Assembly (NCBI GenBank): GCA_965116665.1 | Contig: OZ220709.1 | Coordinates: 1,340,669 to 1,404,668, forward strand | DNA: 64,000 nucleotides | Source of the DNA: Acidimicrobiales bacterium | GTDB taxonomy: Bacteria; Actinomycetota; Acidimicrobiia; Acidimicrobiales; Aldehydirespiratoraceae | Direction: 5' to 3' | Translations under genes and position numbers: made by a program | The notes under the pieces: model-generated | The model's input: only the letters and a program-made list of their open reading frames with translations | The model's database searches: none | What the model was told of the DNA's origin: nothing | Shown: positions 4,634 through 51,360 of the stretch, one piece after another | Layout: every line of letters starts with the position of its first letter | How positions within the stretch are numbered: position 1 is the stretch's first letter

Positions 4634-5860
4634 ATGACCCTTTCTGACCAGCTTGTCGGCGTCGAGACCCTGCGTGAGGACGGCTTCGACCCCTCGACGG
4701 TCGGTGGGGCGACGTTCGCCGGCCTCGGGCTGTGCGACGAGATCGTGTTGGCGCTGGCTGCTCGGGGCATCACCGTGCCGTTCCCCATCCAGGTGCTCAC
4801 CATCCCCGACGCGCTGGCGGGCCATGACGTGTGCGGCAAGGCCAAGACCGGCTCGGGCAAGACGCTCGCCTTCGGCTTGCCCGTCCTGCAGCGCCTGCCC
4901 CGGGCGAAGCCCGCCGCGCCCGCCGGTCTGGTGCTGGCGCCCACACGCGAGCTGGCCAACCAGATCTGCGACGAGTTGGCTGCGCCGGCGGCCGCGGTGA
5001 AGCGCCGGGTGCTGGCGGCTTACGGCGGAGCCCCGATCGACAAGCAGATCAAGGCGCTGCGCCAGGGCGTGGACCTGGTGGTGGCCACTCCGGGCCGGAT
5101 GATCGACCTGATCGACCGCGACGCGGTCAGCGTCGGCTCGGTGCGTCAGGTGGTGGTGGACGAGGCCGACCGGATGGCCGACATGGGCTTCCTGCCCCAG
5201 GTCGAGTGGATCCTGCGCAACGTCGAGAGCGGTCACCAGACCCTGCTGTTCTCGGCCACCCTCGACGGAGCGGTCGACTCTCTGGTCAGGCGCTACCAGA
5301 GCGATCCGGTGATGCACGCCGTGGCGCCCCGCGAGATCACTGTGGCCGAGATGGTCCACCGGTTCGTGGGCGTCCACAAGCTCGACAAGGTGAAGGTGGC
5401 TGCGGCCATCGCCGGCTCGGTGGGTCGCACGCTGATGTTCACCCGCACCAGGGTGGCCGCCGACCGCCTGGCCCGCGACCTGCGGCGAGAGAACGTGAAG
5501 GCGGCACCCATTCACGGCGATCTGCGCCAGGTGGCCCGCGAGAAGTCTCTGCGCCAGTTCATCGCCGGGGACCTTCCCGTGCTGGTGGCGACCGATGTCG
5601 CCGCCCGTGGGATCCACGTCGACGATGTGGATGTCGTGGTGCAGTTCGATCCGCCCGCCGACCACAAGACCTACGTTCACCGTGCGGGCCGCACCGCCCG
5701 GGCGGGAGAGTCCGGCGTGGTGGTGACCCTGTCGTTGTGGGACGAGGAGCTGGACGTGAAGCGGCTCCAGAGGCGCCTCGAGCTCGACGAGCCGATCGTG
5801 GAGATGTTGTCCAACGACCCCCGCCTGAGCGACCTTCTCGGCTGGGAGCAGGCCGGCTGA
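4634..5860 (+). CDS. DEAD-box ATP-dependent RNA helicase
   Basis: ATG 4634 within ORF 4364..5860. Motifs: Q-motif FPIQ, AKTGSGKT, VVVDEADRM (DEAD), LFSATL (SAT), HRAGRTARAG. Confidence 0.9.
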   Translation: MTLSDQLVGVETLREDGFDPSTVGGATFAGLGLCDEIVLALAARGITVPFPIQVLTIPDALAGHDVCGKAKTGSGKTLAFGLPVLQRLPRAKPAAPAGLVLAPTRELANQICDELAAPAAAVKRRVLAAYGGAPIDKQIKALRQGVDLVVATPGRMIDLIDRDAVSVGSVRQVVVDEADRMADMGFLPQVEWILRNVESGHQTLLFSATLDGAVDSLVRRYQSDPVMHAVAPREITVAEMVHRFVGVHKLDKVKVAAAIAGSVGRTLMFTRTRVAADRLARDLRRENVKAAPIHGDLRQVAREKSLRQFIAGDLPVLVATDVAARGIHVDDVDVVVQFDPPADHKTYVHRAGRTARAGESGVVVTLSLWDEELDVKRLQRRLELDEPIVEMLSNDPRLSDLLGWEQAG

Positions 5861-5935
5861 GCCCCGCCGCCCGGAGCAGGTCGCGTCGCGTGAGCGCGAT
5901 CCGGTTCTAGACTGGTCGGCGACCTAGCGGTCAAG

Positions 5936-6022
5936 ACATCACGAGCGGTTCGGCCTCCGGGCCGGGCCCGGCAACCTGGGAACGGACACCCAAGGTGCCA
6001 GCCCGCCTCCGGGCGGGGATGT
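5936..6022 (+). promoter_or_regulatory. SAM riboswitch aptamer (SAM-I/SAM-IV clan) in the metX leader
   Basis: ACAUC-ACGAG...CCCGGCAACC-UGGG..CCCA-AGGUGCC-AGCCCGCC UCCG GGCGGG-GAUGU. Conserved AUCAnGAG, GGCAACC and GGUGC blocks are present. P1 (ACAUC/GAUGU), P3 and P4 hairpins can be drawn. It lies 129 nt upstream of the metX start. Confidence 0.6.
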
Positions 6023-6150: not shown

Positions 6151-7374
6151 TTGAGCGCAGGTTCTGGCATCGAGCCTCCGACTCCCGCGGCCGGGCGGGC
6201 CGGCCCCGGGGGGCGCTTCCCGGCCGGGCTGCCCGCCACCGGCGCCTGGCACGTCGGCGATCCCGCCGGGGACCGCCGGTTCGTGACCGTCACCGACACC
6301 CGTCCCTTCGCGCTGGAGTGGGGAGGGCGCCTTGGCGAGGTGCGGGTGGCCTACGAGACCTGGGGCGAGCTAGACCCGCGGGCCTCCAACGCCGTGCTCG
6401 TCTGCCACGCGCTCACCGGCGACTCCCATGCGGCCGGCGACAGCGGGCCGTCGCATCCCACCCCCGGCTGGTGGCACGAGCTGATCGGGCCGGGCAGGGC
6501 GATCGACACCGACCGGTACTTCGTGGTGTGCAGCAACGTGCTGGGCGGCTGCCAGGGCACCACCGGCCCGGCCGATCTCGATCCGGTCGAGGGGCGGCGT
6601 TACGGGCCGCGCTTTCCGGTGGTGACCATCCGCGACATGGTGCGCATCCAGGCCCGGCTGGCCGATCATCTCGGAGTGCGCCGCTGGCTGGCCGTGATCG
6701 GCGGCTCGATGGGCGGGATGCAGGTCCTGGAGTGGGCTGTCATGTACCCGCGGCGGGTGCGGTCGATCCTGCCCCTGGCCACCTGCGCCTCGGCCAGCGC
6801 GCTGCAGATCGCCTGGAGCGCGGTGGAGCGCCTGGCCATCGCCACCGATCCGGGATGGTACGACGGCGACTACTACGACAAGCCCGAGGGGCCCTGGATG
6901 GGCCTGGCCGTCGCCCGCCAGATCGCCCAGGTGACCTACCGCTCCGGGGAGTCCTTCGATCGCCGTTTCGGCCGGCAGCTGTACGACCCGGTCGGGGACT
7001 TCGACCTGTGGGGCCGCTTCCAGATGGAGTCCTACCTCGACCACCACGGCCAGAAGCTGGTCCGCCGCTTCGACGCCAACTCCTACGTGTTGCTCAACCG
7101 GTCGATGGACCTGCACGACATCGGGCGGGGCCGGGGAGGCACGGCCGCGGCCCTGGGCCGCATCCGGGTGCCGGTGCTGACCGCGTCGATCACCAGCGAC
7201 CGCCTCTACCCGCCCCACGAACAGCAGGAACTGCACGACGGGATCGTCGCGGGGGGCGGCGACTGCCGGAGGGTGATGCTGGAGAGCGACGAGGGCCATG
7301 ACGGGTTCCTGCTCGAGCACGAGCTGCTGCGGGATCCCGTCGCCGGCTTCCTCGAGGAGGTGTCCGGTGGCTGA
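6151..7374 (+). CDS. metX: Homoserine O-acetyltransferase
   Basis: In-frame TTG 6151 preceded by AAGGAG (6139-6144) within ORF 5995..7374. Motifs: VLVCHALTGDSHAAG, YFVVCSNVLGGCQGTTGP, nucleophile elbow IGGSMGGMQ, C-terminal GHDGFL. Confidence 0.9.
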   Translation: MSAGSGIEPPTPAAGRAGPGGRFPAGLPATGAWHVGDPAGDRRFVTVTDTRPFALEWGGRLGEVRVAYETWGELDPRASNAVLVCHALTGDSHAAGDSGPSHPTPGWWHELIGPGRAIDTDRYFVVCSNVLGGCQGTTGPADLDPVEGRRYGPRFPVVTIRDMVRIQARLADHLGVRRWLAVIGGSMGGMQVLEWAVMYPRRVRSILPLATCASASALQIAWSAVERLAIATDPGWYDGDYYDKPEGPWMGLAVARQIAQVTYRSGESFDRRFGRQLYDPVGDFDLWGRFQMESYLDHHGQKLVRRFDANSYVLLNRSMDLHDIGRGRGGTAAALGRIRVPVLTASITSDRLYPPHEQQELHDGIVAGGGDCRRVMLESDEGHDGFLLEHELLRDPVAGFLEEVSGG

Positions 7375-8581
7375 GAACGCCGGCGGCAACTCCTCTGGAC
7401 TGCACGTTCAGACCCGGGCGATCCGCGCCGGCCGGGACGACAACCAGAACGCGCTGGCCCCGATCCTGTGGGCCACCTCGACGTTCACGGCCGACACCGT
7501 GTCCGAGGCCCACGACATGGCGGTCGACACCCATTCGAGCCGGTTCTACACCCGCTACGGCAACCCGACCGTCAAGGCCTTCGAGGATGCCGTGGCCGAC
7601 CTGGAGGGCACCGAGTCGGCCCGGGCCTTCGCCTCGGGCATGGGAGCGCTCAGCGCCATCGTTCTCGGCCTGTGCTCCAGCGGCGACCACATTGTCGCCC
7701 AGCGCCAGCTCTACGCGGGCACGCAGCTGCTGCTGCAGACGGCGTGCCCCCGCTTCGGCATCGGGGTGACCTTCGTGGACGGCACCGAGCCCGGCGCCTT
7801 CGCGGAGGCCGTGAGGCCGGGCCGGACGGTGCTGGTGATCGCCGAGACGCCCGCAAACCCGAAGCTGGCGGTGGCCGACCTGGCCGAGGTGGGCGCCATC
7901 GCCGGTCCGATGACGGTGGTCGACTCGACGTTCGCCACACCGCTGGGGCAGCGGCCCGCCGACCATGGGGTGGATCTGGTGGTCCACTCGGCCACCAAGG
8001 CGATCGCGGGCCACAACGACGCCACCATCGGGGTGGTGGCCGGCAGCGAGGAGCTGCTGGCGTGGTTGTGGAACTACGCCGTGCTCCACGGGGCGGTGGC
8101 CTCGCCGTTCGACGCGCTCAACGCTCTGCGGGGCATCCGCACCCTGGCCGTGCGCCTCCGCCAGCAGACCGAGACCGCCACCGCGCTGGCCACCGCTCTG
8201 GAGGGCCATCCGATGGTCGAGGCGGTGCACTATCCGGGTCTGGCGTCGCACCCCCAGCACGAGCTGGCGGCCCGGCAGATGGACCTGGCCGGCGGTCTGG
8301 TCACCTTCGACCTGGCCGACGGCTACGAGGCCGGCCGGGCCTTCGTGGAGGAGGTCCGGGTTGTGCGGCTGGCCACGTCGCTGGGCGGTCCCGAGAGCAT
8401 CGTCACCCATCCGGCGTCGACTACCCATGTGAGCCTGCTGCCTGAGGAGTTGGAGGCGGTGTGCATCGGCCAGGGGACGGTGCGGTTCTCCGCCGGGCTC
8501 GAGCACACCGACGACGTGGTCGCGGACGTGATCGGGGCGCTCGACCGCGTCGATCGAATCGTCGGCGGCGCACCCCGGTAG
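7367..8581 (+). CDS. Cys/Met-metabolism PLP-dependent enzyme (cystathionine gamma-synthase / O-acylhomoserine sulfhydrylase-like)
   Basis: GTG 7367 overlaps the metX stop (GTGGCTGA), with GAGGAGG upstream. Motifs: YTRYGNPT, ASGMGA, PLP-lysine motif HSATKAIAGHND. Operon context with metX. Confidence 0.85.
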   Translation: MAENAGGNSSGLHVQTRAIRAGRDDNQNALAPILWATSTFTADTVSEAHDMAVDTHSSRFYTRYGNPTVKAFEDAVADLEGTESARAFASGMGALSAIVLGLCSSGDHIVAQRQLYAGTQLLLQTACPRFGIGVTFVDGTEPGAFAEAVRPGRTVLVIAETPANPKLAVADLAEVGAIAGPMTVVDSTFATPLGQRPADHGVDLVVHSATKAIAGHNDATIGVVAGSEELLAWLWNYAVLHGAVASPFDALNALRGIRTLAVRLRQQTETATALATALEGHPMVEAVHYPGLASHPQHELAARQMDLAGGLVTFDLADGYEAGRAFVEEVRVVRLATSLGGPESIVTHPASTTHVSLLPEELEAVCIGQGTVRFSAGLEHTDDVVADVIGALDRVDRIVGGAPR

Positions 8582-40431: not shown

Positions 40432-41430
40432 GTGGCTGAGCGGGCTGGCAGCGGTGCGTTGAAGCGGCGAAGAACCCGCAACCCGACGCGCCCCACGACG
40501 CCAACAGCCACGGGCCGGCCGGTTCGCGGGGAGCCTCGCCATGTCGCAGGGTTCGATGTCGCGGGCGCCCTCCAGCGAGGGCTGCCTGTTGATGAGCTCG
40601 CGAAGCTCAAGGCCCAGAGCCGCTATCTAGGTTCTTATGCATGGGAGCTGGGCCTGGACCCCCGTGATCTGTGCCCGTTGTGTGGGGAGATGTTCGGCGG
40701 GTGGTGCCTTCACGCTGATCATGTGATGCCTGAGCACTTCGGGGCGCTGTATCGCATCGACGGTGCGTGGCGGGCGGTGCGCGACGCCGAAGATATCCCA
40801 GCGGGTGCCGGGGTCTTCCACGCGGTGCAGTGCGCCGCCTACGCGCACGCGCCGTGCAACCTTCGAAAGGGCCGCACCGCCGATGTGTCTGCTTGGCGAT
40901 TGACGGGGATGGCGCCGCTGATCGTGGCAGAATCGGACGCGGGAGAGGCGGTGGCGGTCCCCGGTCCGGTGATCGTGGCCGCAGAGCCGCGAACCCCCGA
41001 GCAGCGAGCCGCTGAGGCTCTGGGCCTGCAGCACGCCAAGACCGCCAGCGGCGGCGTGCGCGGACGGCGTCTCAGCATCGAGGAACGCAACCGCGAGGCC
41101 GAGCTGGCCCAGCAGGCCCTCGCCGCGCACCAACAACGCCGTGTGAGCCAGCAGCGGGCATTGCCCGCACCCGATGCGACATGGGCCTTCTCACAACAAC
41201 GCCGCAAGCTGGCGCGAGCTCGACGTCGAGGCGACCGGAACATCTTGTGCAACTTCACCGGACAGGACCGCCCGAAGTTGTGTGTCGGCAACGGGCCCCG
41301 GGAGTGCTGGTGCGCCAGAGTGCGCCCCGAGGCAGCAGACCGCCTCATCGCCGCGTTCGGAGCTGAGAAGGCGCTCGAGATACTCGTCGAGGACCCGCCC
41401 AGGCCAATGCAGGCCCTAGGAGACTGCTGA
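40432..41430 (+). CDS. HNH endonuclease-like protein; last five codons and stop lie inside the IS1182 inverted repeat
   Basis: ORF 40432..41430. Motifs: CPLCG...LHADHVMPEH...HAPCNLRKGR (HNH/Zn pattern). Start uncertain; the C-terminus ...PMQALGDC* reads into the IR at 41413. Confidence 0.55.
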   Translation: MAERAGSGALKRRRTRNPTRPTTPTATGRPVRGEPRHVAGFDVAGALQRGLPVDELAKLKAQSRYLGSYAWELGLDPRDLCPLCGEMFGGWCLHADHVMPEHFGALYRIDGAWRAVRDAEDIPAGAGVFHAVQCAAYAHAPCNLRKGRTADVSAWRLTGMAPLIVAESDAGEAVAVPGPVIVAAEPRTPEQRAAEALGLQHAKTASGGVRGRRLSIEERNREAELAQQALAAHQQRRVSQQRALPAPDATWAFSQQRRKLARARRRGDRNILCNFTGQDRPKLCVGNGPRECWCARVRPEAADRLIAAFGAEKALEILVEDPPRPMQALGDC

Positions 41431-43201
41431 GCAAGTCGCCTGTGGTGGTGACGGTGTAGCGGCGGGTGGGGGGTCGGTGTCGGTTGTGGTGTGCAGCCGG
41501 GCGGTGCCGGTTGGGGGCGCTGGGGGCCTCGGCGGGTTGTGTGGGGGCCCGGGTCGGGTGCTTTGGGGGGTTCGGCGGGTCCGTCGGGGTCTGGGGCGGG
41601 CCTCGGCGGGTCAGGCGATGGCCCAGTTGGTGCCGTTGTGGTGCAGGCCGAGGCTGGTGAGTCGTTTGAGGTTGACTGCGGCGGCGCGCAGGGTCAGCCA
41701 GTGGCGGTTCTTTCGGGTGCCTCTGTAGGGGCACCTTCGGTTGTTGCGGACGAGCCAGGCGATGGTGCGCTCGGCCATGGGCCGGTGTGTGGTGTAGGCG
41801 CGCTGGAACTCGCTGGTTCGGGCCTGGGCTCGGGCTGCGGCGAGCAGGTCGTGGTGTGGGTGCAGCCGGATGGTGCGTCCGGCTGCAGCGGTGGTGCAGC
41901 GGGCCCGCACCGGGCAGCTGCGGCACCTGTTGCCGAAATGGGCGTGCCCTTTGGGGGTGAACGAGACGGTGACCCCGGCGGGGCAGGTGACTGTTCGGGC
42001 TTGGGCGTCGATGTCGAAGTCGTCGATGCTGTAGCCGCCTTCGACCGCGGTGCGCAGAGGCGGCGGCTTGATGACCGCTGTCATGTTGCGCTCTTCGAGA
42101 CGGGCTCGCAGCGCTCCGGTGCCGTAGGCGCTGTCGGCGAGCACCACGGTGCCGGCAGGCTCGCCCGCCAGCAGCCCCGCGGCGGCGTCCGCGTCGGCGG
42201 CGTCGCCTGGCGTGAGGTCGACCGCGGTGACCAGCCCGGTGTCGGGCTCAGCACAGACGTGGGCCTTGTAGCCGTCGCGGTAGCTGTGGGCGCTCTTGTG
42301 GGCGTGGCGCGACTCGGGGTCCACCACCGACACCACCCGCCCAGCAGCGACGCGACGTGCGATGCGCCACCGGCCCGGGCCGTCGCCGGGCTCGGTGTCT
42401 TGGCCCGCCACCAGCGCCAACAGCCCCAACGCGTCGGCCTGCGCGTCGTTGAGGTCGAGATCCTCGCAGGCGCCGATCAGCTCCAGAGCGTCATCGACCA
42501 ACTCGCTCACCAGACGCTCCACATCGCCGGGGTCGTCCCAGTCCACCTCAGGCCCCGCAGCGGCGTCGAGGTTGTGCTCGCGAACCCACACCTCGCCCAG
42601 CTGCGGCACCAGCTTGCGCAGCTTGCGCATCTGCACCCGCAGCATCGTCACCGTGCCCTGGCGCGCCACCGCGTCATCCAGCACCGTGGAGTCCAGCACC
42701 CGGCGCTGCTTGCCCGACACCGCCCCCGTCACCGCCACCAGCTCGCGCACCGCGTCGAAGACCCGGTCCGGGCGGTCTGAGGCCCGCAGCCGGTTCCGCC
42801 ACAGCACCAGCACCGTCGGATGAAACGCCCCATCGGTCAAAGCCAGCCCCGCCGCAGCCTTCCAGCGCACATCACAACGCAACCGCTCAACCGCCTCACG
42901 GTCAGAACAGCCCTCCAACGCCTGCAGAACCAGCACCACCGCCATCACCGAACCCGGCACCGACGGACGGCCCCGCCCCGACGCAAACAAGTCCCCGAAC
43001 ATCTCATCGGGAAACAACCTGTCACGATGCTGCGCCAACAACGCATACACCGAATCCGCCGCAACCAGATGCCCGCACACCGCCGCGGCGTCCAACAGCT
43101 CCCGATCCGGCTTCTCAATGCCCTGCATGACCGAAATCCTCCCACACCCCACCAACGATCGCGAGCACCCAACCCCGAATTATTCAGCAGTCTCCTAGGG
43201 C
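41413..43201 (-). mobile_element. IS1182/IS5-like insertion sequence (1789 bp) with perfect 18-bp terminal inverted repeats
   Basis: GCCCTAGGAGACTGCTGA at 41413-41430 and its exact reverse complement at 43184-43201. One transposase gene between them. Confidence 0.85.
41611..43128 (-). CDS. IS1182-family DDE transposase
   Basis: ATG 43128 in ORF 41611..43155. Blocks: RGRPSVPGSVMAVVLVLQ, DREAVERLRCDVRWK, HAHKSAHSYRDGYKAHV, LADSAYGTG, and a C-terminal NLKRL block. Confidence 0.85.
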   Translation of the reverse strand: MQGIEKPDRELLDAAAVCGHLVAADSVYALLAQHRDRLFPDEMFGDLFASGRGRPSVPGSVMAVVLVLQALEGCSDREAVERLRCDVRWKAAAGLALTDGAFHPTVLVLWRNRLRASDRPDRVFDAVRELVAVTGAVSGKQRRVLDSTVLDDAVARQGTVTMLRVQMRKLRKLVPQLGEVWVREHNLDAAAGPEVDWDDPGDVERLVSELVDDALELIGACEDLDLNDAQADALGLLALVAGQDTEPGDGPGRWRIARRVAAGRVVSVVDPESRHAHKSAHSYRDGYKAHVCAEPDTGLVTAVDLTPGDAADADAAAGLLAGEPAGTVVLADSAYGTGALRARLEERNMTAVIKPPPLRTAVEGGYSIDDFDIDAQARTVTCPAGVTVSFTPKGHAHFGNRCRSCPVRARCTTAAAGRTIRLHPHHDLLAAARAQARTSEFQRAYTTHRPMAERTIAWLVRNNRRCPYRGTRKNRHWLTLRAAAVNLKRLTSLGLHHNGTNWAIA

Positions 43202-45146: not shown

Positions 45147-45182
45147 TGGATCGGTAGCCCGGACTCGAACCCGGCCCTTCTG
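45147..45182 (-). repeat. Remnant of a tRNA 3' half (T-arm + acceptor), direct repeat of the 3' half of the tRNA-like gene at 50236..50308
   Basis: Minus strand cagaagggccgggttcgagtccgggctaccgatcca versus cagaggaaccgggttcgagtcccggctgccgctca at 50234-50268. About 28 of 34 aligned positions match by eye, in the same orientation. Confidence 0.5.
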
Positions 45183-45275
45183 CTGTGTCGATCTGCCGGT
45201 GATCGACGCCTCGGGGGTCGCAATATACAGTGCGTGCATGGCTGCTCATGAGCTCCGCCGAGTCCAGCCCTTCTC

Positions 45276-45746
45276 GTGTTGCCGGGGCCACTGTCGGACA
45301 GCGGGGCGATCCAAGTGGTGCCGGTGCTAGGCAGGTCTGGGGCCTCAGCGCTGGTCGACTTCGTCGTGCCGGGCACTCCGAAGTCCCAACAAGCGGACAA
45401 CAAGAGCATCAAGCGGTGGCAACAGAAAGTGAAGGCCGCAGCGCCAGATCTACCCGAGTTCTTGACAGGTCCGCTGAGGGTGCGGATTGCCTTCTTCTTC
45501 AACGGCACCACTGATGTCGACACCGACAACATCATCAAGCCGATACAGGACGCTCTTGAAGAGACCATCTACGAGAACGACAAAATCGTGGTCGATGTCT
45601 GCGCCCGCAAGATCGACCGGCAACGCCTCCCCGCCGTTGTGGGTGCTCCTACAGTGCTGTTAGCGGCTCTAGCCGAACCGGCCGGGAACTTCGTGTTTGT
45701 TCGGGTCGCGTCCGCTCAAAATGGACTCGGTCCGTCATGGCTATGA
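45276..45746 (+). CDS. RusA-family Holliday-junction resolvase-like protein
   Basis: ORF 45276..45746. FVVPGTPKSQ...LRVRIAFFF...DVDTDNIIKPIQDALEETIYENDKIVVDV matches the RusA D-x-D-N..K...DAL..DD pattern. Start uncertain. Confidence 0.6.
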   Translation: MLPGPLSDSGAIQVVPVLGRSGASALVDFVVPGTPKSQQADNKSIKRWQQKVKAAAPDLPEFLTGPLRVRIAFFFNGTTDVDTDNIIKPIQDALEETIYENDKIVVDVCARKIDRQRLPAVVGAPTVLLAALAEPAGNFVFVRVASAQNGLGPSWL

Positions 45747-46600
45747 CATCACCCGAGCGTGACGCCGTTGAGCGCGCCAGGGCCGCGTATGTGGCTGACG
45801 GCTACACCGTCAGCGTCCAGGAACGGCTCGAGCCGCTCGGCGACTTCAGGGCCGACGCTGTGGCCCGTCGGGGGAATGAGACCGTGGTCATCGAGGTCTG
45901 CTCGGCTGGATTGGCTGACTGGGAACGTGAGAGGATTGCCCGTCTAGCCGAGAAGGTCACCACCCAAGACGGTTGGCGCGTCGACATCTTCACCTACGAG
46001 TCTGTCACTCGACGGCCCGTCCCCAAACGCGACGATGTGGTTCGCCGCATCGAAGAGGCTCGCCGAGTGGCGGACCTGTCGATCGAGGCGGCAGTCATGT
46101 TGATCTGGTCCGCCGTTGAGGGTGCGCTGCTCCAGTTCTCCGGACGGCGCGGTCTTGGCTCTGCTCGTGCAGTGTCGCCGCGCGCTCTCATCCTGCAGCT
46201 CAACATCGATGGCATTCTCACCGACAGCCAGGCCGACGATCTGGATGATCTTGCCCTGATCCGTAACGACATAGCGCACGGAATGCGCTCAACTCTGCCA
46301 GATCAGCAGCGACTGGAAAGGCTGGCCGAACTCGCGCTAGCACTCGCGGCTTCCCATGACGATGTGGCCAGCGCCGAAGACATGATCGAGTGGTTCTTCA
46401 CCAACTACGCCACACCGGAAGAAGCGGCGCTGTTCTACGACAAGGAGGAGGGCGACTACTTCTGGCTCGGGGCTGGTCCTCATGATCCAGCCGATGTCTT
46501 GCAGGATCAGTTCGACACAGCATCGGAATCCGACATCGCCGAAGCCGTCACGGTGATCACCCGGCAAGGCTTCGATTGGGCTCGGCGCGATCATCTGTGA
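45737..46600 (+). CDS. PD-(D/E)xK-like N-terminal domain fused to a HEPN domain
   Basis: ORF 45737..46600 overlaps the RusA-like gene by 10 nt. FRADAVARRGNETVVIEVCS is a nuclease-fold pattern. LALIRNDIAHGM is a canonical RN-xxx-H HEPN motif. Confidence 0.6.
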   Translation: MAMTSPERDAVERARAAYVADGYTVSVQERLEPLGDFRADAVARRGNETVVIEVCSAGLADWERERIARLAEKVTTQDGWRVDIFTYESVTRRPVPKRDDVVRRIEEARRVADLSIEAAVMLIWSAVEGALLQFSGRRGLGSARAVSPRALILQLNIDGILTDSQADDLDDLALIRNDIAHGMRSTLPDQQRLERLAELALALAASHDDVASAEDMIEWFFTNYATPEEAALFYDKEEGDYFWLGAGPHDPADVLQDQFDTASESDIAEAVTVITRQGFDWARRDHL

Positions 46601-46857
46601 CCCAAGGCGACCCATCGCGACGGCCAAGCGGATCATGACGAGAGCGGCTGCGCCCTACGAAGCCCGCCACGCGGCCTCGCCGGCGTGAAGCTCGCGCAGG
46701 CGCACACCACAACCCGACCAGTTCGGGCACATCATGAACGTTCTAGCCGGTCGCCATCGCGCTCCGCCAAGAACCGCGCTGAACCAATCTGAACGGCCCT
46801 AATCCCCTTGGAGCGCTGGCTCACGGCCTCCCAGCCGTGTGTTGGATGGGATGTCGG

Positions 46858-47637
46858 TCAACGCGAGTTCCCAATATCTGCGGACGGGGTGTGGCCTCGC
46901 TCTGTGTTGTCAGTGGTCTGGCCGCTGTCGAGACAGACTTCGGGACTGGTCGACGTGCCATCGCAGTGAGATGTTGGGGCCGACCACATCGACATCCATA
47001 GGCCGATCATGCCCAGCACCGCTCCTGCGGCGATCCAGATGACGCCCGTGCCCAGGTGGGTCAGTCGTGCCGCGTTGGTGTCTACGCCCGTGGGAACATT
47101 CTCGGCGTAGTCGCGTGCCAAGAACCTGCGGAGCTCCCCCGGTTCGTTCGTGAGGTCAATAACGATGTCGGTCTGTTTGAACGGTGCCCTGTCTCCGATG
47201 AGTGCTCCCATTACGAGCGCACCCAGGAGCATCATCCCGGAACCGGACAGCAGCAGGATGCAAGTGATCGTTCGCCAGGGCTGCTCGATGCCGTTGAGAT
47301 CGTCTAGCGATGTGAGGAAGAAGACTGATGCCGCTACCCCCACGGTCAGCAGGACGCTTGCTCGGGTGGTGACGTACTGCAGCTCGCTGAACTGGCTGTC
47401 GAGTTGGCGCCGGCCTTCTTGTATGGCGAGAGTCTGGTCTTCTTCGTCCCAGGATTCGATGCCCTCGCCGATCTCGCCCGGATGGACCTTCTTGTGCCTG
47501 TAGATCTTGATCTTGTATCTGGTCAGCACCGCGATGACGAAGGACAGGTGGTGGTGGTTCCACCATCGGGTCTTGGGCTGCTTCTTGGGCGTTTCGGGTT
47601 CATCAGCGCTGGGGCCGGTGTCGAGGTCGCGGGTCAT
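46858..47637 (-). CDS. Multi-pass membrane protein, last gene of the ATP-grasp cassette
   Basis: ATG 47637 overlaps the ATP-grasp stop (ATGA). Hydrophobic segments: SVLLTVGVAASVFFLTSL, ITCILLLSGSGMMLLGALVMGALIG, GVIWIAAGAVLGMIGLWMSMW. Visibly lower GC. Confidence 0.6.
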   Translation of the reverse strand: MTRDLDTGPSADEPETPKKQPKTRWWNHHHLSFVIAVLTRYKIKIYRHKKVHPGEIGEGIESWDEEDQTLAIQEGRRQLDSQFSELQYVTTRASVLLTVGVAASVFFLTSLDDLNGIEQPWRTITCILLLSGSGMMLLGALVMGALIGDRAPFKQTDIVIDLTNEPGELRRFLARDYAENVPTGVDTNAARLTHLGTGVIWIAAGAVLGMIGLWMSMWSAPTSHCDGTSTSPEVCLDSGQTTDNTERGHTPSADIGNSR

Positions 47638-48560
47638 GAGTGGCCGCTCAGAAAGCTCACGATGTGGTCGGTTATGGGATCAGCGACGTCTGGTGGCAGG
47701 AACATCCACTGACCGGCCGGGTTCAAGTCGATGAACGTCGGCTCGCCCGTTACCGGCATCAGCCAGTCTTGGCTCGAGAATCCGACTCGCAACTCGGCGG
47801 CGAGTCGGGCGGCTTGGGCTTGGACCTGTTGCGATTCATGTCGGCGCCACGAATGGTGAGCGTCATCGGCGAGGCGCCAGTCCAGTGGCCAACAGTCGCC
47901 GTCGAGAACCGCTGTCGTGACGATGCTTCCGGCTGTGACCACCCGCAGGTGCTGGTGAACCTCGATTCGCTGCTGGGCGACGAACGGGGCAGACCCGAAG
48001 TCTCCGGTCGCCAGAAGATCTGTAGTCAGCGGAGTTGTGTGCACCGCCTGAGGTTCTCCCTGGGTGTTGACGAACGCGCCGGTTGCGAGGGGCTTGATGA
48101 CCGCGTCGTCGCCCAGCGCTCGCTGTATCTCAGCGGGGTCCGAGGACACGATCGTCGCAGGCGTAGCGATCCCGAGCCGTCGCGCCGCCGTTAGCTGATG
48201 AATGCGGTCCTCGGCCGATTGCAGCGCGTCGATGTCGGTAACCCAGTCGCGGTTGCCATGACGTGCGATGGACGCGATGAGGCGTACTCGTGCACGGAAT
48301 GACACATCCGAGACCGACCCGACGCGATCACCGCTGCTCCATCGGCTCGGTGCCGCCCTTCGCAGCCAGGCGCGGCCCTCATCGGCGATCACCTCTCCGT
48401 CGATGACGAGTGCTTGCGGCGAGAACGAGTAGCTGACCTGCGCCAGCGAGTCAGCGTCGAACACCACAGGCTCGACACCGCGCTCTTGGAGCCGGTCGGC
48501 GACAGTGCGAAGATGGGCGTCCGACTCGTTGCCCACCAGCAGCGGGCGCTGACCCATCAC
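47634..48560 (-). CDS. ATP-grasp ribosomal-peptide maturase (graspetide ligase-like)
   Basis: ORF 47634..48560; GTG 48560 or ATG 48557 overlaps the precursor stop. Pre-ATP-grasp N-terminus LLVGNESDAHLRTVADRLQERGVEPVVFDADSL, then VIKPLATG and a C-terminal FIDLNPAGQWMFL block typical of RiPP ATP-grasps. Confidence 0.75.
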   Translation of the reverse strand: MMGQRPLLVGNESDAHLRTVADRLQERGVEPVVFDADSLAQVSYSFSPQALVIDGEVIADEGRAWLRRAAPSRWSSGDRVGSVSDVSFRARVRLIASIARHGNRDWVTDIDALQSAEDRIHQLTAARRLGIATPATIVSSDPAEIQRALGDDAVIKPLATGAFVNTQGEPQAVHTTPLTTDLLATGDFGSAPFVAQQRIEVHQHLRVVTAGSIVTTAVLDGDCWPLDWRLADDAHHSWRRHESQQVQAQAARLAAELRVGFSSQDWLMPVTGEPTFIDLNPAGQWMFLPPDVADPITDHIVSFLSGHS

Positions 48561-48757
48561 ATCAGAGGCAACACAGAGTCGTCGTCGTAAGTCTCCAAGT
48601 TCGACCTCGTGATGAGAGTGCCGCAGTCCGCGATCGACGGCAGCACGAAGTCGTCGTCGTAGGTCTCGTCGGGGTTAGCGGTGACAAAGGTGCCGTGATC
48701 TGACGCTGCCGCCGCGACGGGGCGGCCGAGCAGTTCGAACAGGTTGGTCTTTCCCAC
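48557..48757 (-). CDS. Candidate graspetide precursor peptide (66 aa) with two repeated cores
   Basis: GTG 48757 with AGGAGAG RBS 5 nt upstream. Leader MGKTNLFELLGRPVAAAASDHG, then TFVTANPDETYDDDFVLP and TLITRSNLETYDDDSVLP. Thr plus Asp/Glu-rich cores suit ester cross-links. Confidence 0.6.
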   Translation of the reverse strand: MGKTNLFELLGRPVAAAASDHGTFVTANPDETYDDDFVLPSIADCGTLITRSNLETYDDDSVLPLM

Positions 48758-50075: not shown

Positions 50076-50235
50076 CGCTAACGCATCCCGAAGCTGCGTA
50101 ACGACGGCTTGTCGTCGCCGCTGATCGAGCCTCGTCGCCGCATGGCCGGGCCCCTGTTTAGCCGGCCGCGAGTCGGACTGAGCCGTCGTCCCGGCATCTG
50201 TAGCAGCCCACGACAGGGGCTGCCGTTTGATTTGA

Positions 50236-50308
50236 GCGGCAGCCGGGACTCGAACCCGGTTCCTCTGCGAGTGTGCAGGAGCTCTAACCCTGTTGAGCTA
50301 CTGCCGCT
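50236..50308 (-). tRNA. tRNA-like gene with non-canonical anticodon arm (probable pseudo-tRNA or unusual tRNA)
   Basis: Good acceptor (GCGGCAG/CTGCCGC), D-arm (GCTC-AACAGGGTTA-GAGC) and T-arm (CCGGG-TTCGAGT-CCCGG). Only 21 nt lie between the D- and T-arms. The best fold is CTGC-ACACTC-GCAG: a 4-bp stem with a 6-nt loop and no U33. Confidence 0.55.
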
Positions 50309-50784
50309 ACTTTGTGTGACTGCTGAACACCGGCTGGCTGACCCTTGTGGAGGAGACATTCGCGTGTCGGCCTTGCACTCCTCATGCACCATCCAGATCT
50401 TGTGCTGCCCGCCGCTCCCCCAGTGTGCGCTGAGTCGGTCCATGGTCGGCCCGGAGCGGTGTGCCCTGCTTCACGCAACAGGGGCGCCGTTGTGCGGGCC
50501 GGGCAGCTAACCGATGGTTACGCTCCCGCCCGCCTCGCATGTTTGCTTGCTAACAAGGTCGGACTCCTCGAGTTCGGTTCGGCCGCACAACGTATCACAC
50601 CCCCAAAGTGGGGGCAACACACGTTTTGTCGCTTCCACCTCAGATTACCACATGACACTAAGATACCCTGAATAATCTGATGCACTGGGCTGGGCGTCGC
50701 GCCGGGCTGCCGGGACACAGCAGGTACAGAAACCTTGACCATCGACGAAGCGCTGCCCATTGGTGTCGCGCGAAGCTGGCCGGC

Positions 50785-51360
50785 ATGGACGTAGATCACG
50801 TGCCCGAACTGGTTGGCGACCAGGTGAGACTGCGCGAGCTTCGAGACAGCGACATCGCGCTGCGGGCGTCTCTTGGGCGAAGCCGCGAGATCGCTCGTGG
50901 CTTCGGCGAAGACCTCCACCTGGACGAGCCCATGGCCCAACACGACGCCGCCGACGAACTCGCCCGCCGATTCGGGTCCGGTCCGCACTGGGTCATCGCC
51001 GACCAACACGACGTATTCGTTGGGATCGTGCGCCTGGCCCCCATCGACACCGAGAACCGGTCAGCACGCCTAGGCATCGGGATCCTGGATCCGGGTCGCC
51101 TCGGGCAGGGCCTCGGCACCGACGCAATCCGCCTCGTGCTCGCCTGGGCGTTCAATCGCCTCGACCTGCACCGGGTCAGTCTCACCGTCCTCGCCGACAA
51201 CAGCCGCGCCATCGCCGCCTACACCAGATGCGGTTTTGTCGTCGAGGGAAGACTCCGCGACACGCTCCTTCGCGACGGCGCATGGCGCGACGACTTGAAC
51301 ATGGCCATCCTCAAGCCGCAATGGACATCCCAACAGGCCGGCACACAGACGCCTCGTTGA
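50785..51360 (+). CDS. GNAT-family N-acetyltransferase (RimJ/RimL-like)
   Basis: ATG 50785 in ORF 50680..51360. Motifs: acetyl-CoA motif A region LGIGILDPGRLGQGLGTDAIRLVLAWAF, then LHRVSLTVLADNSRAIAAYTRCGF. Confidence 0.8.
   Translation: MDVDHVPELVGDQVRLRELRDSDIALRASLGRSREIARGFGEDLHLDEPMAQHDAADELARRFGSGPHWVIADQHDVFVGIVRLAPIDTENRSARLGIGILDPGRLGQGLGTDAIRLVLAWAFNRLDLHRVSLTVLADNSRAIAAYTRCGFVVEGRLRDTLLRDGAWRDDLNMAILKPQWTSQQAGTQTPR

Follow-up and report, generated by a model that had tools for sequence, protein, structure and literature searches.

[quoted passage not shown] The thuringinin locus of Bacillus thuringiensis (group 3; TgnA, TgnB and a membrane protein) pairs a multi-core precursor with a single ATP-grasp enzyme, and its TgnA cores, given as TTIVTETIENADPDE in the PMC8939145 supplement, carry two esters per repeat (PMC12291112). 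The plesiocin locus of Plesiocystis pacifica (group 2; PsnA2, PsnB and a membrane protein) likewise combines a single ligase with a multi-core precursor; two esters are formed per core, and the leader element LFIEDL of PsnA2 is bound by PsnB (10.1101/2021.03.09.434688). In all graspetides, the nucleophiles come before the acids (PMC7823629). Rosaritide offers an example of a different kind of partner, MirC, a non-enzymatic protein which strictly co-occurs with a graspetide synthetase and copurifies with it, the complex being catalytically active (Carter et al. 2026, PMC13097080).

The cassette described here lies in a 64,000-nucleotide stretch of DNA (the window, by which we mean the whole stretch that was analysed) and has the same minimal three-gene set as thuringinin. 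It belongs to an uncharacterised actinobacterial branch of a familiar class of peptides, the graspetides, and is unusual only in having a small membrane protein that is always present. Motif and genus searches covering part of the RODEO graspetide data set (Ramesh 2021; Carter 2026) did not find this family, the published supplementary list of characterised graspetides contains none from it, and no literature was found on graspetides of Poriferisodalis or sponge Acidimicrobiia.

Organization and conservation of the cassette

The cassette comprises three translationally coupled genes on the minus strand, encoding a 66-aa two-core graspetide precursor with a GTG start (48557..48757), a 308-aa graspetide synthetase, or ATP-grasp macrocyclase (47634..48560), and a 259-aa partner membrane protein with three transmembrane (TM) helices (46858..47637). 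The ORF list and the sequence place all three where the first-pass annotation, made from the sequence alone, had put them. Direct reading of the same strand also agrees with that annotation on a Shine-Dalgarno-like AGGAGAG at 48770-48764, separated by a 6-nt spacer from the precursor GTG at 48757, and on both stop/start overlaps: the TGA of the precursor overlaps the start of the ATP-grasp gene (CTGATGTGATGGGTC), and the ATP-grasp stop and the membrane-protein start share ATGA (CTCATGACC). The ligase can be read as 308 aa from GTG 48560 or as 307 aa from ATG 48557, the latter being the form recorded in the public collection (P0001). A promoter and terminator scan returned nothing exceeding the shuffle expectation, and a search for expression evidence found neither an RNA run containing the sequence nor proteomic data.

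The triad is kept in 35 genomes of Acidimicrobiia, Solirubrobacterales, Nocardioidaceae and others, with ligase identities of 34-82%; cultured carriers include Nocardioides sp. Root140, Aeromicrobium panaciterrae JCM 16926, Knoellia locipacati SLM-625 and Pimelobacter simplex 3E. In all 35 loci the membrane gene immediately follows the ligase and has its orientation, and the search for homologous precursors that had been suggested as a check recovered a small ORF with a leader and Thr-before-Asp/Glu cores directly upstream of the homologous ligases in 34 of them. Because the same order and strand recur in 35 independent genomes across this range of ligase identity, the arrangement is far beyond chance. 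For this clade, some 90 clusters of ligases and over 330 representatives of the membrane partner were found, carried by sponge-symbiont Acidimicrobiia and by soil Solirubrobacterales and Nocardioidaceae.

No fourth conserved gene was found when nine window neighbours were compared by tblastn with 40 loci (zero matches), and in an all-vs-all BLAST of 124 flanking genes the largest cluster, present at six loci, consisted of integrases. Since no other conserved gene accompanies the triad, any system-specific export or maturation function must reside in its three genes. In the same neighbour and flanking-gene comparisons, the conserved cassette had no PIMT methyltransferase, GNAT or ABC-peptidase; a methyltransferase adjoins it only in the outlier locus L040. 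The GNAT gene at 50680-51360 was considered as an MdnD-like tailoring enzyme and rejected because it is divergent, another gene separates it from the cassette, and none of the related loci has it.

Precursor leader and cores

The precursor consists of a leader, MGKTNLFELLGRPVAAAASDHG, followed by two cores and a C-terminal LPLM. Residues 5-11 of the leader (NLFELLG; 48725..48745, minus strand) match the family consensus L[F/Y]xxL, which occurs in 55 of 56 unique precursors and resembles the LFIEDL element of PsnA2, suggesting a putative recognition motif. Across these 56 precursors, the modal distance from the motif to the first core Thr is 17 residues. Core 1 (TFVTANPDETYDDD; T-x-x-T-x4-E-T-x-D-D-D; 48650..48691, minus strand) was delimited by a six-frame motif scan and family statistics, and core 2 (TLITRSNLETYDDD; 48578..48619, minus strand), its tandem duplicate, by the motif scan and a DNA repeat. 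The duplication is visible at the DNA level as repeat D1, with 29 nt that are 86% identical and 72 nt apart, in keeping with the two near-identical cores annotated at first pass. Fused leader-core-leader-core precursors also occur in the family.

The 82 cores of the 56 unique precursors follow the consensus G-x-T-x-x-T-x(3-4)-E-T-x-D-x-D, with invariant positions for Thr, Thr, Glu, Thr and Asp. All 82 cores have a Thr after the Glu, a residue that was not part of the search pattern. The core layout had been described as unfamiliar, which the family as a whole does not support: the spacing T-x-x-T-x-x-x-E-x-x-D-x-D, with a 3-residue loop, is that of TgnA and is found identically in 56 of the 82 cores, whereas the two cores of the window and 24 others have one additional loop residue (TxxTxxxxExxDxD). 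The window's cores do, as had been noted, contain Thr donors and Asp/Glu acceptors but no Lys, and omega-ester links are therefore expected from their sequence. The precursor is without a GG cleavage site, and the cassette encodes no leader peptidase.

A graspetide synthetase clade without a Pfam or NCBIfam name

The ligase matches the graspetide maturase models TIGR04187 (E 2.8e-28), MvdC (3.5e-24) and MvdD (2e-16) over their full length, all far below the curated cut-offs (99 bits vs 350, 85 vs 425 and 60 vs 475, respectively), in the comparison with TIGR04187 and MdnB/C models that had been proposed as a check. Profile searches against the PDB retrieved AMdnB (3.7e-35) and MdnB (1.8e-31), as well as MdnC, PruB, CdnC and PsnB. 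The best sequence-level matches are AMdnB (125 bits), MdnB (113 bits) and TIGR04187. In Foldseek searches with an AF2 model of pLDDT 89.4, the best 31 matches were all graspetide synthetases (PsnB, MdnC, CdnC, AMdnB, PruB and MdnB; TM 0.70-0.82), with RimK ranked below. The protein thus falls within the MdnB/MdnC/PsnB-type superfamily of RiPP ATP-grasp macrocyclases, including the pre-ATP-grasp domain, and retains invariant residues of catalytic type (K156, R206, D227-W-R229, Q264-D265 and D278-L-N-P-x-G-Q-W285). By sequence and predicted structure, the enzyme is a RiPP graspetide synthetase and not a RimK. The first-pass annotation had taken FIDLNPAGQWMFL as its C-terminus, but this segment lies about 21 residues before the end of the protein.

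Against a profile built from the family, its members score at least 320 bits and other proteins at most 125 bits, which delimits a discrete clade that has no name in Pfam or NCBIfam. The TgnB-type ligase of pHS18-2 (L041) scores 98 bits against this profile and does not cluster with the family; it is only remotely related to the ligase of the window (BLASTP, 20% identity, E 1e-12). Other features also separate the two systems. The thuringinin leader is PYIxxY rather than L[F/Y]xxL, the residue after Glu is Asn in TgnA and an invariant Thr here, and the thuringinin loop has three residues and that of the window's cores four. The thuringinin-locus membrane protein has 361 aa and is unrelated to the 259-aa partner described here (Makarova cluster 18 protein; BLASTP E 7.7, HMM E 0.16). 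In L041 the gene order is ligase, membrane protein, precursor, whereas here it is precursor, ligase, membrane protein, and thuringinin hosts belong to Bacillota and Pseudomonadota whereas those of this family are Actinomycetota. What is shared, besides the gene set and, in 56 of the 82 cores, the core spacing, is a tandem array of cores, a frequent location on mobile elements, and the exclusive involvement of Thr, Glu and Asp, which implies ester links only.

Plesiocin is similar in its leader element and in the fold of PsnB, which is among the best structural matches to the ligase although, of the solved graspetide synthetases, it matches least well by sequence (60 bits); the plesiocin core, TTxxxxEE, is unlike those found here. 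The microviridin-type MdnB, MdnC and AMdnB (group 1) and the TIGR04187/SAV_5884 graspimiditide ligases (group 13) have a full-length fold in common with the ligase. Microviridin loci are characterized by two ligases (MvdC and MvdD), a TxKxPSDx(D/E)(D/E) core with Lys and a PFFARFL leader; the cassette has a single ligase below both equivalog cut-offs, cores without Lys or TxKxPSD, and a different leader. The adjacent PIMT-type O-methyltransferase of graspimiditide loci has no conserved counterpart here, and the TIGR04187 cut-off of 350 is far from being reached.

The partner membrane protein

The 259-aa protein belongs to no Pfam, NCBIfam or PADLOC family and is represented by 337 sequences among 1.84 billion proteins. 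It was annotated as having three to four TM helices; a multi-TM protein is indeed predicted, and the count is three TM helices, in addition to which a short hydrophobic helix lies near the N-terminus. The predicted topology is N-in/C-out, with AF2 helices at 65-113, 120-148 and 167-219 (pLDDT 68.8, of moderate confidence). This topology fits the P/T/S-rich or LamG-like C-terminal tails carried by relatives; such tails or read-through account for all of the long representatives, and none of the 337 is a natural fusion to the ligase. Three conserved motifs are predicted to be cytoplasmic, namely W..D...EEGRRQLD.Q before TM1, RA.F..D after TM2 and LA.DY....G..T.AARLT before TM3, and in the alignments combined with the AF2 topology every invariant polar residue falls on the predicted cytoplasmic side.

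Scans of the protein and 24 homologues against Pfam, NCBIfam and PADLOC gave only sub-threshold noise (Holin-X, on one helix), and Foldseek comparison of the model with the PDB gave only generic long-helix bundles (BAR domains, NINJ1), all with E of at least 0.1. HMM searches and Foldseek against the PDB thus revealed no recognisable transporter, peptidase or channel fold. Like MirC, the protein strictly accompanies a graspetide synthetase; unlike MirC, it is an integral 3-TM protein without a recognised domain.

Genomic context

The cassette lies, as had been annotated, inside an integrase-less islet, which is tRNA-flanked and about 5.1 kb long. One edge is a tRNA gene (50235..50307, minus strand; Rfam RF00005, 46.5 bits, E 9e-8), which ARAGORN also detects, with an odd anticodon call; the other is a direct repeat of the tRNA 3' half (45149..45183, minus strand; 83% identical), identified by repeat search (D2) and alignment. 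No integrase was found among the ORFs between the tRNA and its repeat.

Alternative explanations

Three other readings of the locus were weighed. According to one, the ATP-grasp is a primary-metabolism or protein-tailing ligase like RimK, glutathione synthetase or LysX, and the small ORF of 66 aa arose by chance, a reading whose probability is close to negligible. Marginal NCBIfam matches to MptN and LysX (E 0.023-0.17) and the presence of RimK in the Foldseek list (E about 1e-14) are consistent with it, but the graspetide maturase models match over the full length and at least 20 orders of magnitude better, the leading structural matches are RiPP macrocyclases, and the small ORF with its Thr/Glu/Asp pattern is kept across three actinobacterial classes, so that HMM, Foldseek and small-ORF conservation effectively refute it. 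The check proposed in the first-pass annotation, comparison with RimK and glutathione synthetase, therefore groups the enzyme with RiPP macrocyclases, and together with the conserved core-bearing precursor upholds the original identification of a graspetide-type RiPP cassette. A further reading concerns the membrane protein, which, rather than exporting the peptide, may assist biosynthesis as a partner or scaffold on which the stability or activity of the ligase depends, or may confer self-immunity on the producer. Its invariable pairing and translational coupling with the ligase, which suggest that the two are made stoichiometrically, and its conserved cytoplasmic surface would fit such a role, as would the partner-dependent synthetase recently demonstrated for rosaritide (PMC13097080) and the membrane-protein scaffold proposed for microviridin (Weiz 2011, as cited in PMC8939145). 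The complete lack of natural fusions with the ligase among the 337 representatives argues against it. PsnB and TgnB are also reportedly active in vitro without their membrane proteins, and we regard the scaffold or immunity role as possible but rather unlikely.

The first-pass annotation had also suggested, from the islet and a loose likeness of the membrane protein to SLATT/Pycsar-type effectors, that the cassette might serve in conflict. Here the membrane protein would form pores or disrupt the membrane as a SLATT/Pycsar-like or holin-like effector, and the cross-linked peptide, made or consumed on infection, would gate it or have an intracellular action such as the blocking of a phage protease. 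The islet does carry RusA-like, AHJR-REase/HEPN and weak DUF4238 genes, and the 120 flanking genes of 34 related loci include six phage integrases, type I MTases, relaxases and transposases as well as DrmB, PifA, Avs4, QatA, RES and Abi_C. The cassette encodes neither exporter nor protease, Holin-X matches TM3 weakly in 3 of 24 members (best E 0.0059), and phage protection has been suggested as a possible natural function of graspetides (PMC11626197). Against this, the three cassette proteins and the window neighbours yielded zero PADLOC matches, the 24 members showed no SLATT family at E up to 5, the model of the membrane protein had no PDB Foldseek match at E <0.1, and the Holin-X match, confined to one helix, does not reach the threshold. 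No neighbour recurs with the cassette, and the same mobile-island context is documented for groups 3, 4 and 10 of the graspetides, all regarded as ordinary RiPP clusters, so that the islet is not evidence for a defence role. Neither the effector likeness nor the conflict role is thus borne out, and we consider this reading very improbable. Little better, and still improbable, is a bolder proposal in which the triad is a mobile island-borne conflict module rather than a secreted-inhibitor pathway, its 3-TM effector or gate binding the ester-cross-linked peptide through the cytoplasmic face and the peptide acting as an intracellular regulator (e.g., by counteracting phage proteases or triggering permeabilisation of the membrane); in a milder version, the 3-TM protein would represent a novel kind of RiPP exporter, dedicated to that task and obligately partnered with the synthetase.

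Proposed mechanism

The locus is very probably a minimal graspetide biosynthetic gene cluster that works as follows. The ATP-grasp ligase would bind the 66-aa precursor through its N-terminal L-F-E-L-L helix and phosphorylate core Glu/Asp side chains with ATP, upon which upstream Thr hydroxyls would attack to form omega-ester (macrolactone) rings. By analogy with thuringinin, two esters would be expected per core, an inner Thr4-Glu and an outer Thr1-Asp, giving a divalent product with four dehydrations (-72 Da). The family-invariant Thr after Glu and the third acidic residue would leave room for a third ring per core. It should be noted that this connectivity may be wrong, given the 4-residue loop, compared with three residues in thuringinin, and a ligase that is only remotely related to TgnB.

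The 3-TM protein would act as an obligate partner, most likely using its conserved cytoplasmic face to dock the ligase or peptide at the membrane, and allowing the modified peptide to leave the cell. Export is a guess by analogy, transport having been proposed for the analogous, unrelated membrane protein of thuringinin loci (Makarova et al., PMC8939145). The activity of the product is likely to be protease inhibition, as in all characterised relatives. What the analysis shows is the anatomy of the genes, the family and fold of the ligase, the conserved triad, and the core and leader consensus; from these we infer the ester chemistry and connectivity, leader recognition, membrane-protein role and bioactivity.

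Implications

The clade pairs a thuringinin-like core layout with another ligase lineage, providing a natural experiment on the co-evolution or convergence of ATP-grasp macrocyclases and core topologies. The almost constant distance of 17 residues from leader motif to core, together with the leader-core-leader-core precursors, bears on the rules of substrate recognition that matter for engineering peptides. As for the domain-less 3-TM partner, its strict coupling touches on the role of membrane proteins in minimal graspetide clusters, and on how a peptide exits the cell where neither transporter nor peptidase is encoded. As several cultured carriers exist, the question of the membrane partner is directly testable.

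Gene anatomy and assignment of the ligase

The cassette consists of three minus-strand genes, all found by coordinates and reading frame exactly where the first-pass annotation had placed them: a 66-aa precursor gene (48757..48557; AGGAGAG stands upstream of its GTG start, separated from it by 6 nt), a 308-aa ATP-grasp ligase gene (48560..47634) whose start overlaps the precursor stop (…CTGATGTGATGGG…), and a 259-aa membrane-protein gene (47637..46858) with an ATGA overlap at its start. An alternative ligase start, an ATG 3 bases later, gives the 307 aa of the public record, and the sequence FIDLNPAGQWMFL, previously taken for the end of the ligase, actually lies about 21 residues before its C-terminus. 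The precursor has the layout MGKTNLFELLGRPVAAAASDHG-TFVTANPDETYDDD-FVLPSIADCG-TLITRSNLETYDDD-SVLPLM, and its two cores are a tandem duplication in DNA too (29 nt, 86% identical, 72-nt spacing). The cassette is present in single copy within the window.

No Pfam family matched the ligase, and its full-length NCBIfam matches are to graspetide maturase models (TIGR04187, 2.8e-28; MvdC, 3.5e-24; MvdD, 2e-16), all three far under the curated cut-offs. A profile built from 24 family members retrieved only graspetide synthetases from the PDB (AMdnB 125 bits, MdnB 113, MdnC 93, PruB 87, CdnC 86, PsnB 60). With the confident AlphaFold model (pLDDT 89.4), every one of the best 31 Foldseek matches is a RiPP macrocyclase (TM 0.70-0.82), RimK ranking only beneath them. 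The ligase is therefore of the graspetide type, as had been proposed, and does not group with enzymes of the RimK or glutathione-synthetase kind. Residues invariant in the family include K156, R206, the D-W-R triad 227-229, Q264-D265 and D-L-N-P-x-G-Q-W 278-285.

Conservation of the gene triad

A deep protein search for the ligase returned about 90 clusters in two tiers: a close one (57-82% identity) from sponge-associated Acidimicrobiia MAGs ("Ca. Poriferisodalis", Sva0996 and others), and a distant one (34-42%) from Solirubrobacterales, Nocardioides, Aeromicrobium, Knoellia, Pimelobacter, Amycolatopsis and Streptomyces. Among 40 genomic loci fetched for comparison, the ligases of 35 (L001-L035) score at least 320 bits against the family profile, whereas those of L036-L040, a TgnB-type ligase and all PDB entries reach at most 125 bits; the ligase family is therefore a discrete clade. 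A matching membrane-protein gene follows the ligase in the same orientation in 35/35 loci, directly adjoining it in all except L022 (Solirubrobacterales), where about 1.1 kb with a 407-aa ORF intervenes (6906-8040). Precursor ORFs with the core pattern occur upstream of the ligase in 34 of the 35, so that the small ORF is indeed conserved beside homologous ligases. The exception is L014 (Amycolatopsis sp. NPDC051758), whose upstream small ORFs (5523-5983; …ETRVVETGDEGG…, …TETITLTAETADGNDRARV…) are off-pattern and may represent a core variant whose spacing has changed. Two paralogues each of ligase (P0054/P0060) and membrane protein (P0146/P0148) lie on one 3,896,500-bp contig of at least one related genome.

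Outside the family, the distant ATP-grasps of L036-L039 (Proteobacteria and Anaeromyxobacter MAGs; about 74-94 bits against the family profile) have a small Lys/Ala/Pro-rich ORF (…KKPAKKPAAKKTAKKK) upstream and, downstream, an ORF starting MADGADVEARVTALL, which looks like a putative ECF-type sigma factor. This is a different ligase-peptide pairing, possibly an uncharacterised one.

Precursor grammar and known graspetide groups

The 56 unique precursors contain 82 cores with the consensus G-(E/G/R)-T-x-(I/L/V)-T-x(3-4)-E-T-(V/I/L/Y)-D-x-D, the loop between the second Thr and the Glu being of three residues in 56 cores and of four in 26. A Thr directly after the Glu, which the search pattern did not impose, is present in 82/82 cores, and the final Asp in 68/82. 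The leader motif L[F/Y]xxL precedes the cores in 55/56 precursors, most commonly exactly 17 residues from the first core Thr. Acidimicrobiia precursors combine one leader with 1-4 cores, and their inter-core linker (48620-48649 in the window) retains a Cys (…LPS(I/V)xDCGT…). Nocardioidaceae have two tandem genes with ends …ETVDNDRAxLMLDAGVVR, and Solirubrobacterales either 2-4 single-core genes in tandem or single polypeptides of repeated leader-core units. In the latter (L017, L019, L026, L028 and L031; about 5000-6000, upstream of the ligase) each core has its own LYxxL some 17-21 residues ahead, a hint that ligases of this clade measure a strict distance from leader to core.

The first-pass annotation had regarded the ETYDDD core as an unfamiliar layout. 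However, the TgnA cores of thuringinin, as they appear in the supplement of Makarova et al. (TTIVTETIENADPDE, TTIHTFTVENNDTDE, TTRITKTLENIDPDE; PMC8939145), have the spacing T-x-x-T-x-x-x-E-x-x-D-x-D of the family's 3-residue-loop cores, and the window's two cores are longer by one loop residue. In thuringinin, each repeat bears two esters (PMC12291112). A thuringinin-type locus recovered from plasmid pHS18-2 of B. thuringiensis encodes a ligase with only remote similarity to that of the window (E 1e-12, 20% identity) and a 361-aa multi-TM partner with none to the 259-aa protein, and the thuringinin leader has PYIxxY in place of L[F/Y]xxL, which instead resembles the PsnB-binding element LFIEDL of plesiocin (10.1101/2021.03.09.434688). 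In core layout and minimal architecture the family therefore agrees with thuringinin, but it differs in enzyme lineage, leader and partner. Among the characterised graspetides listed in PMC13097080, which reports 43 RODEO groups of graspetides, none comes from the present clade.

The membrane protein and the genomic context

The membrane protein spans the membrane with three helices, at the lower end of the three to four first suggested. Scans with Pfam, NCBIfam and PADLOC assigned it no family. Its relatives are few (337 representatives at E <=1e-3 among 1.84 billion proteins), nearly all of them stand-alone proteins of 190-280 aa. The AF2 model (pLDDT 68.8 overall, 67-90 over residues 61-220) contains long helices at residues 65-113, 120-148 and 167-219; two of the three are cytoplasmic helices extending into TM segments. 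A Foldseek search of the PDB with this model found no structural neighbour. Invariant in both tiers are W63, E74, G75, Q78, Q82, R92, G139, L173, A174, G184 and R191, and nearly so R76, R77, D80, R150, F153, Y177, T187 and T193; the polar ones all fall within predicted cytoplasmic stretches. The alignment lacks a conserved Ser/His/Cys set indicative of a peptidase. Longer relatives have P/T/S-rich or LamG-like C-terminal tails, consistent with an N-in/C-out topology. Several Poriferisodalis-type members (P0133, P0143-P0148, P0151, P0154) end in a Cys-rich extracellular tail (…CCVVECC…).

GC content around the cassette is 62-65%, versus 68-72% in the flanks. The integrase-less islet described earlier can be delimited by a tRNA gene (50234-50307; Rfam 46.5 bits, with an odd ARAGORN anticodon, 'cact') and a direct repeat of its 3' 35 nt (45149-45183, 83% identical). 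These enclose about 5.1 kb, with no integrase between them, in which the cassette is accompanied by a DUF4238-like, an AHJR-REase/HEPN and a RusA-like gene. The last two (45276-46600) are a 156-aa resolvase ORF with a 10-nt overlap with a 287-aa protein that has an AHJR-like restriction-endonuclease domain and a weak RiboL-PSP HEPN match; neither matched in a PADLOC scan, and the two may form an uncharacterised pair of nucleases. Just 3' of the membrane gene lies a fragment similar to the 5' part of a GNAT gene (50680-51360); together with inverted repeats (46659-46770 and 50760-50870; 57 nt + 47 nt, 74% complementary) it suggests an old rearrangement around the cassette. An IS element (41413-43201; 26-nt inverted repeats 41413-41438 and 43176-43201, 88% complementary) with a minus-strand DDE transposase (DDE_Tnp_1, DUF772; 41611-43155) adjoins the low-GC region.

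Proposed function

Gene anatomy, family assignment and conservation are established; beyond these, we infer that the ligase most likely binds the L-F-E-L-L leader helix of the precursor and closes two esters in each core, one nested inside the other (Thr4-Glu and Thr1-Asp), a third being possible via the invariant Thr. The product would be a divalent macrolactone peptide. For the coupled 3-TM protein, the most likely role is to dock this machinery to the membrane and to bring about release. A transport role was suggested by Makarova et al. for the membrane proteins of thuringinin loci (PMC8939145). Precursor, ligase and membrane protein make up the published plesiocin and thuringinin clusters, and therefore a cassette that lacks an ABC exporter, a protease and a methyltransferase, as the first-pass annotation correctly observed, is a known configuration.

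The main alternatives to docking and release are that the 3-TM protein serves as a scaffold or as an immunity protein. That it is instead a conflict effector, as its defence-gene surroundings and a supposed SLATT/Pycsar kinship had suggested, has a low probability. The Pfam, PADLOC and Foldseek results lend that kinship no support. A census of 120 flanking genes at 34 loci did include DrmB, PifA, Avs4, QatA, RES and Abi_C, alongside 6 integrases, type I MTases, relaxases and transposases, and therefore the module tends to travel in variable, mobile regions. None of the islet neighbours co-occurs with the cassette in other loci, nor does any fourth gene recur beside the triad among related loci. 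The same mobile context is published for graspetide groups 3 (TraD, MobA, integrase 23%), 4 (resolvase, integrase) and 10 (AAA ATPase, PcrA, integrase 39%, relaxase); minimal graspetide cassettes thus typically have such surroundings, which are no specific evidence of defence.

The cassette, with docking and release as the preferred role of its membrane protein, is a genuine, well-conserved, uncharacterised variant of a known RiPP class. Its interest is moderate, and lies chiefly in the partner protein and in the way that core layout converges between ligase lineages.
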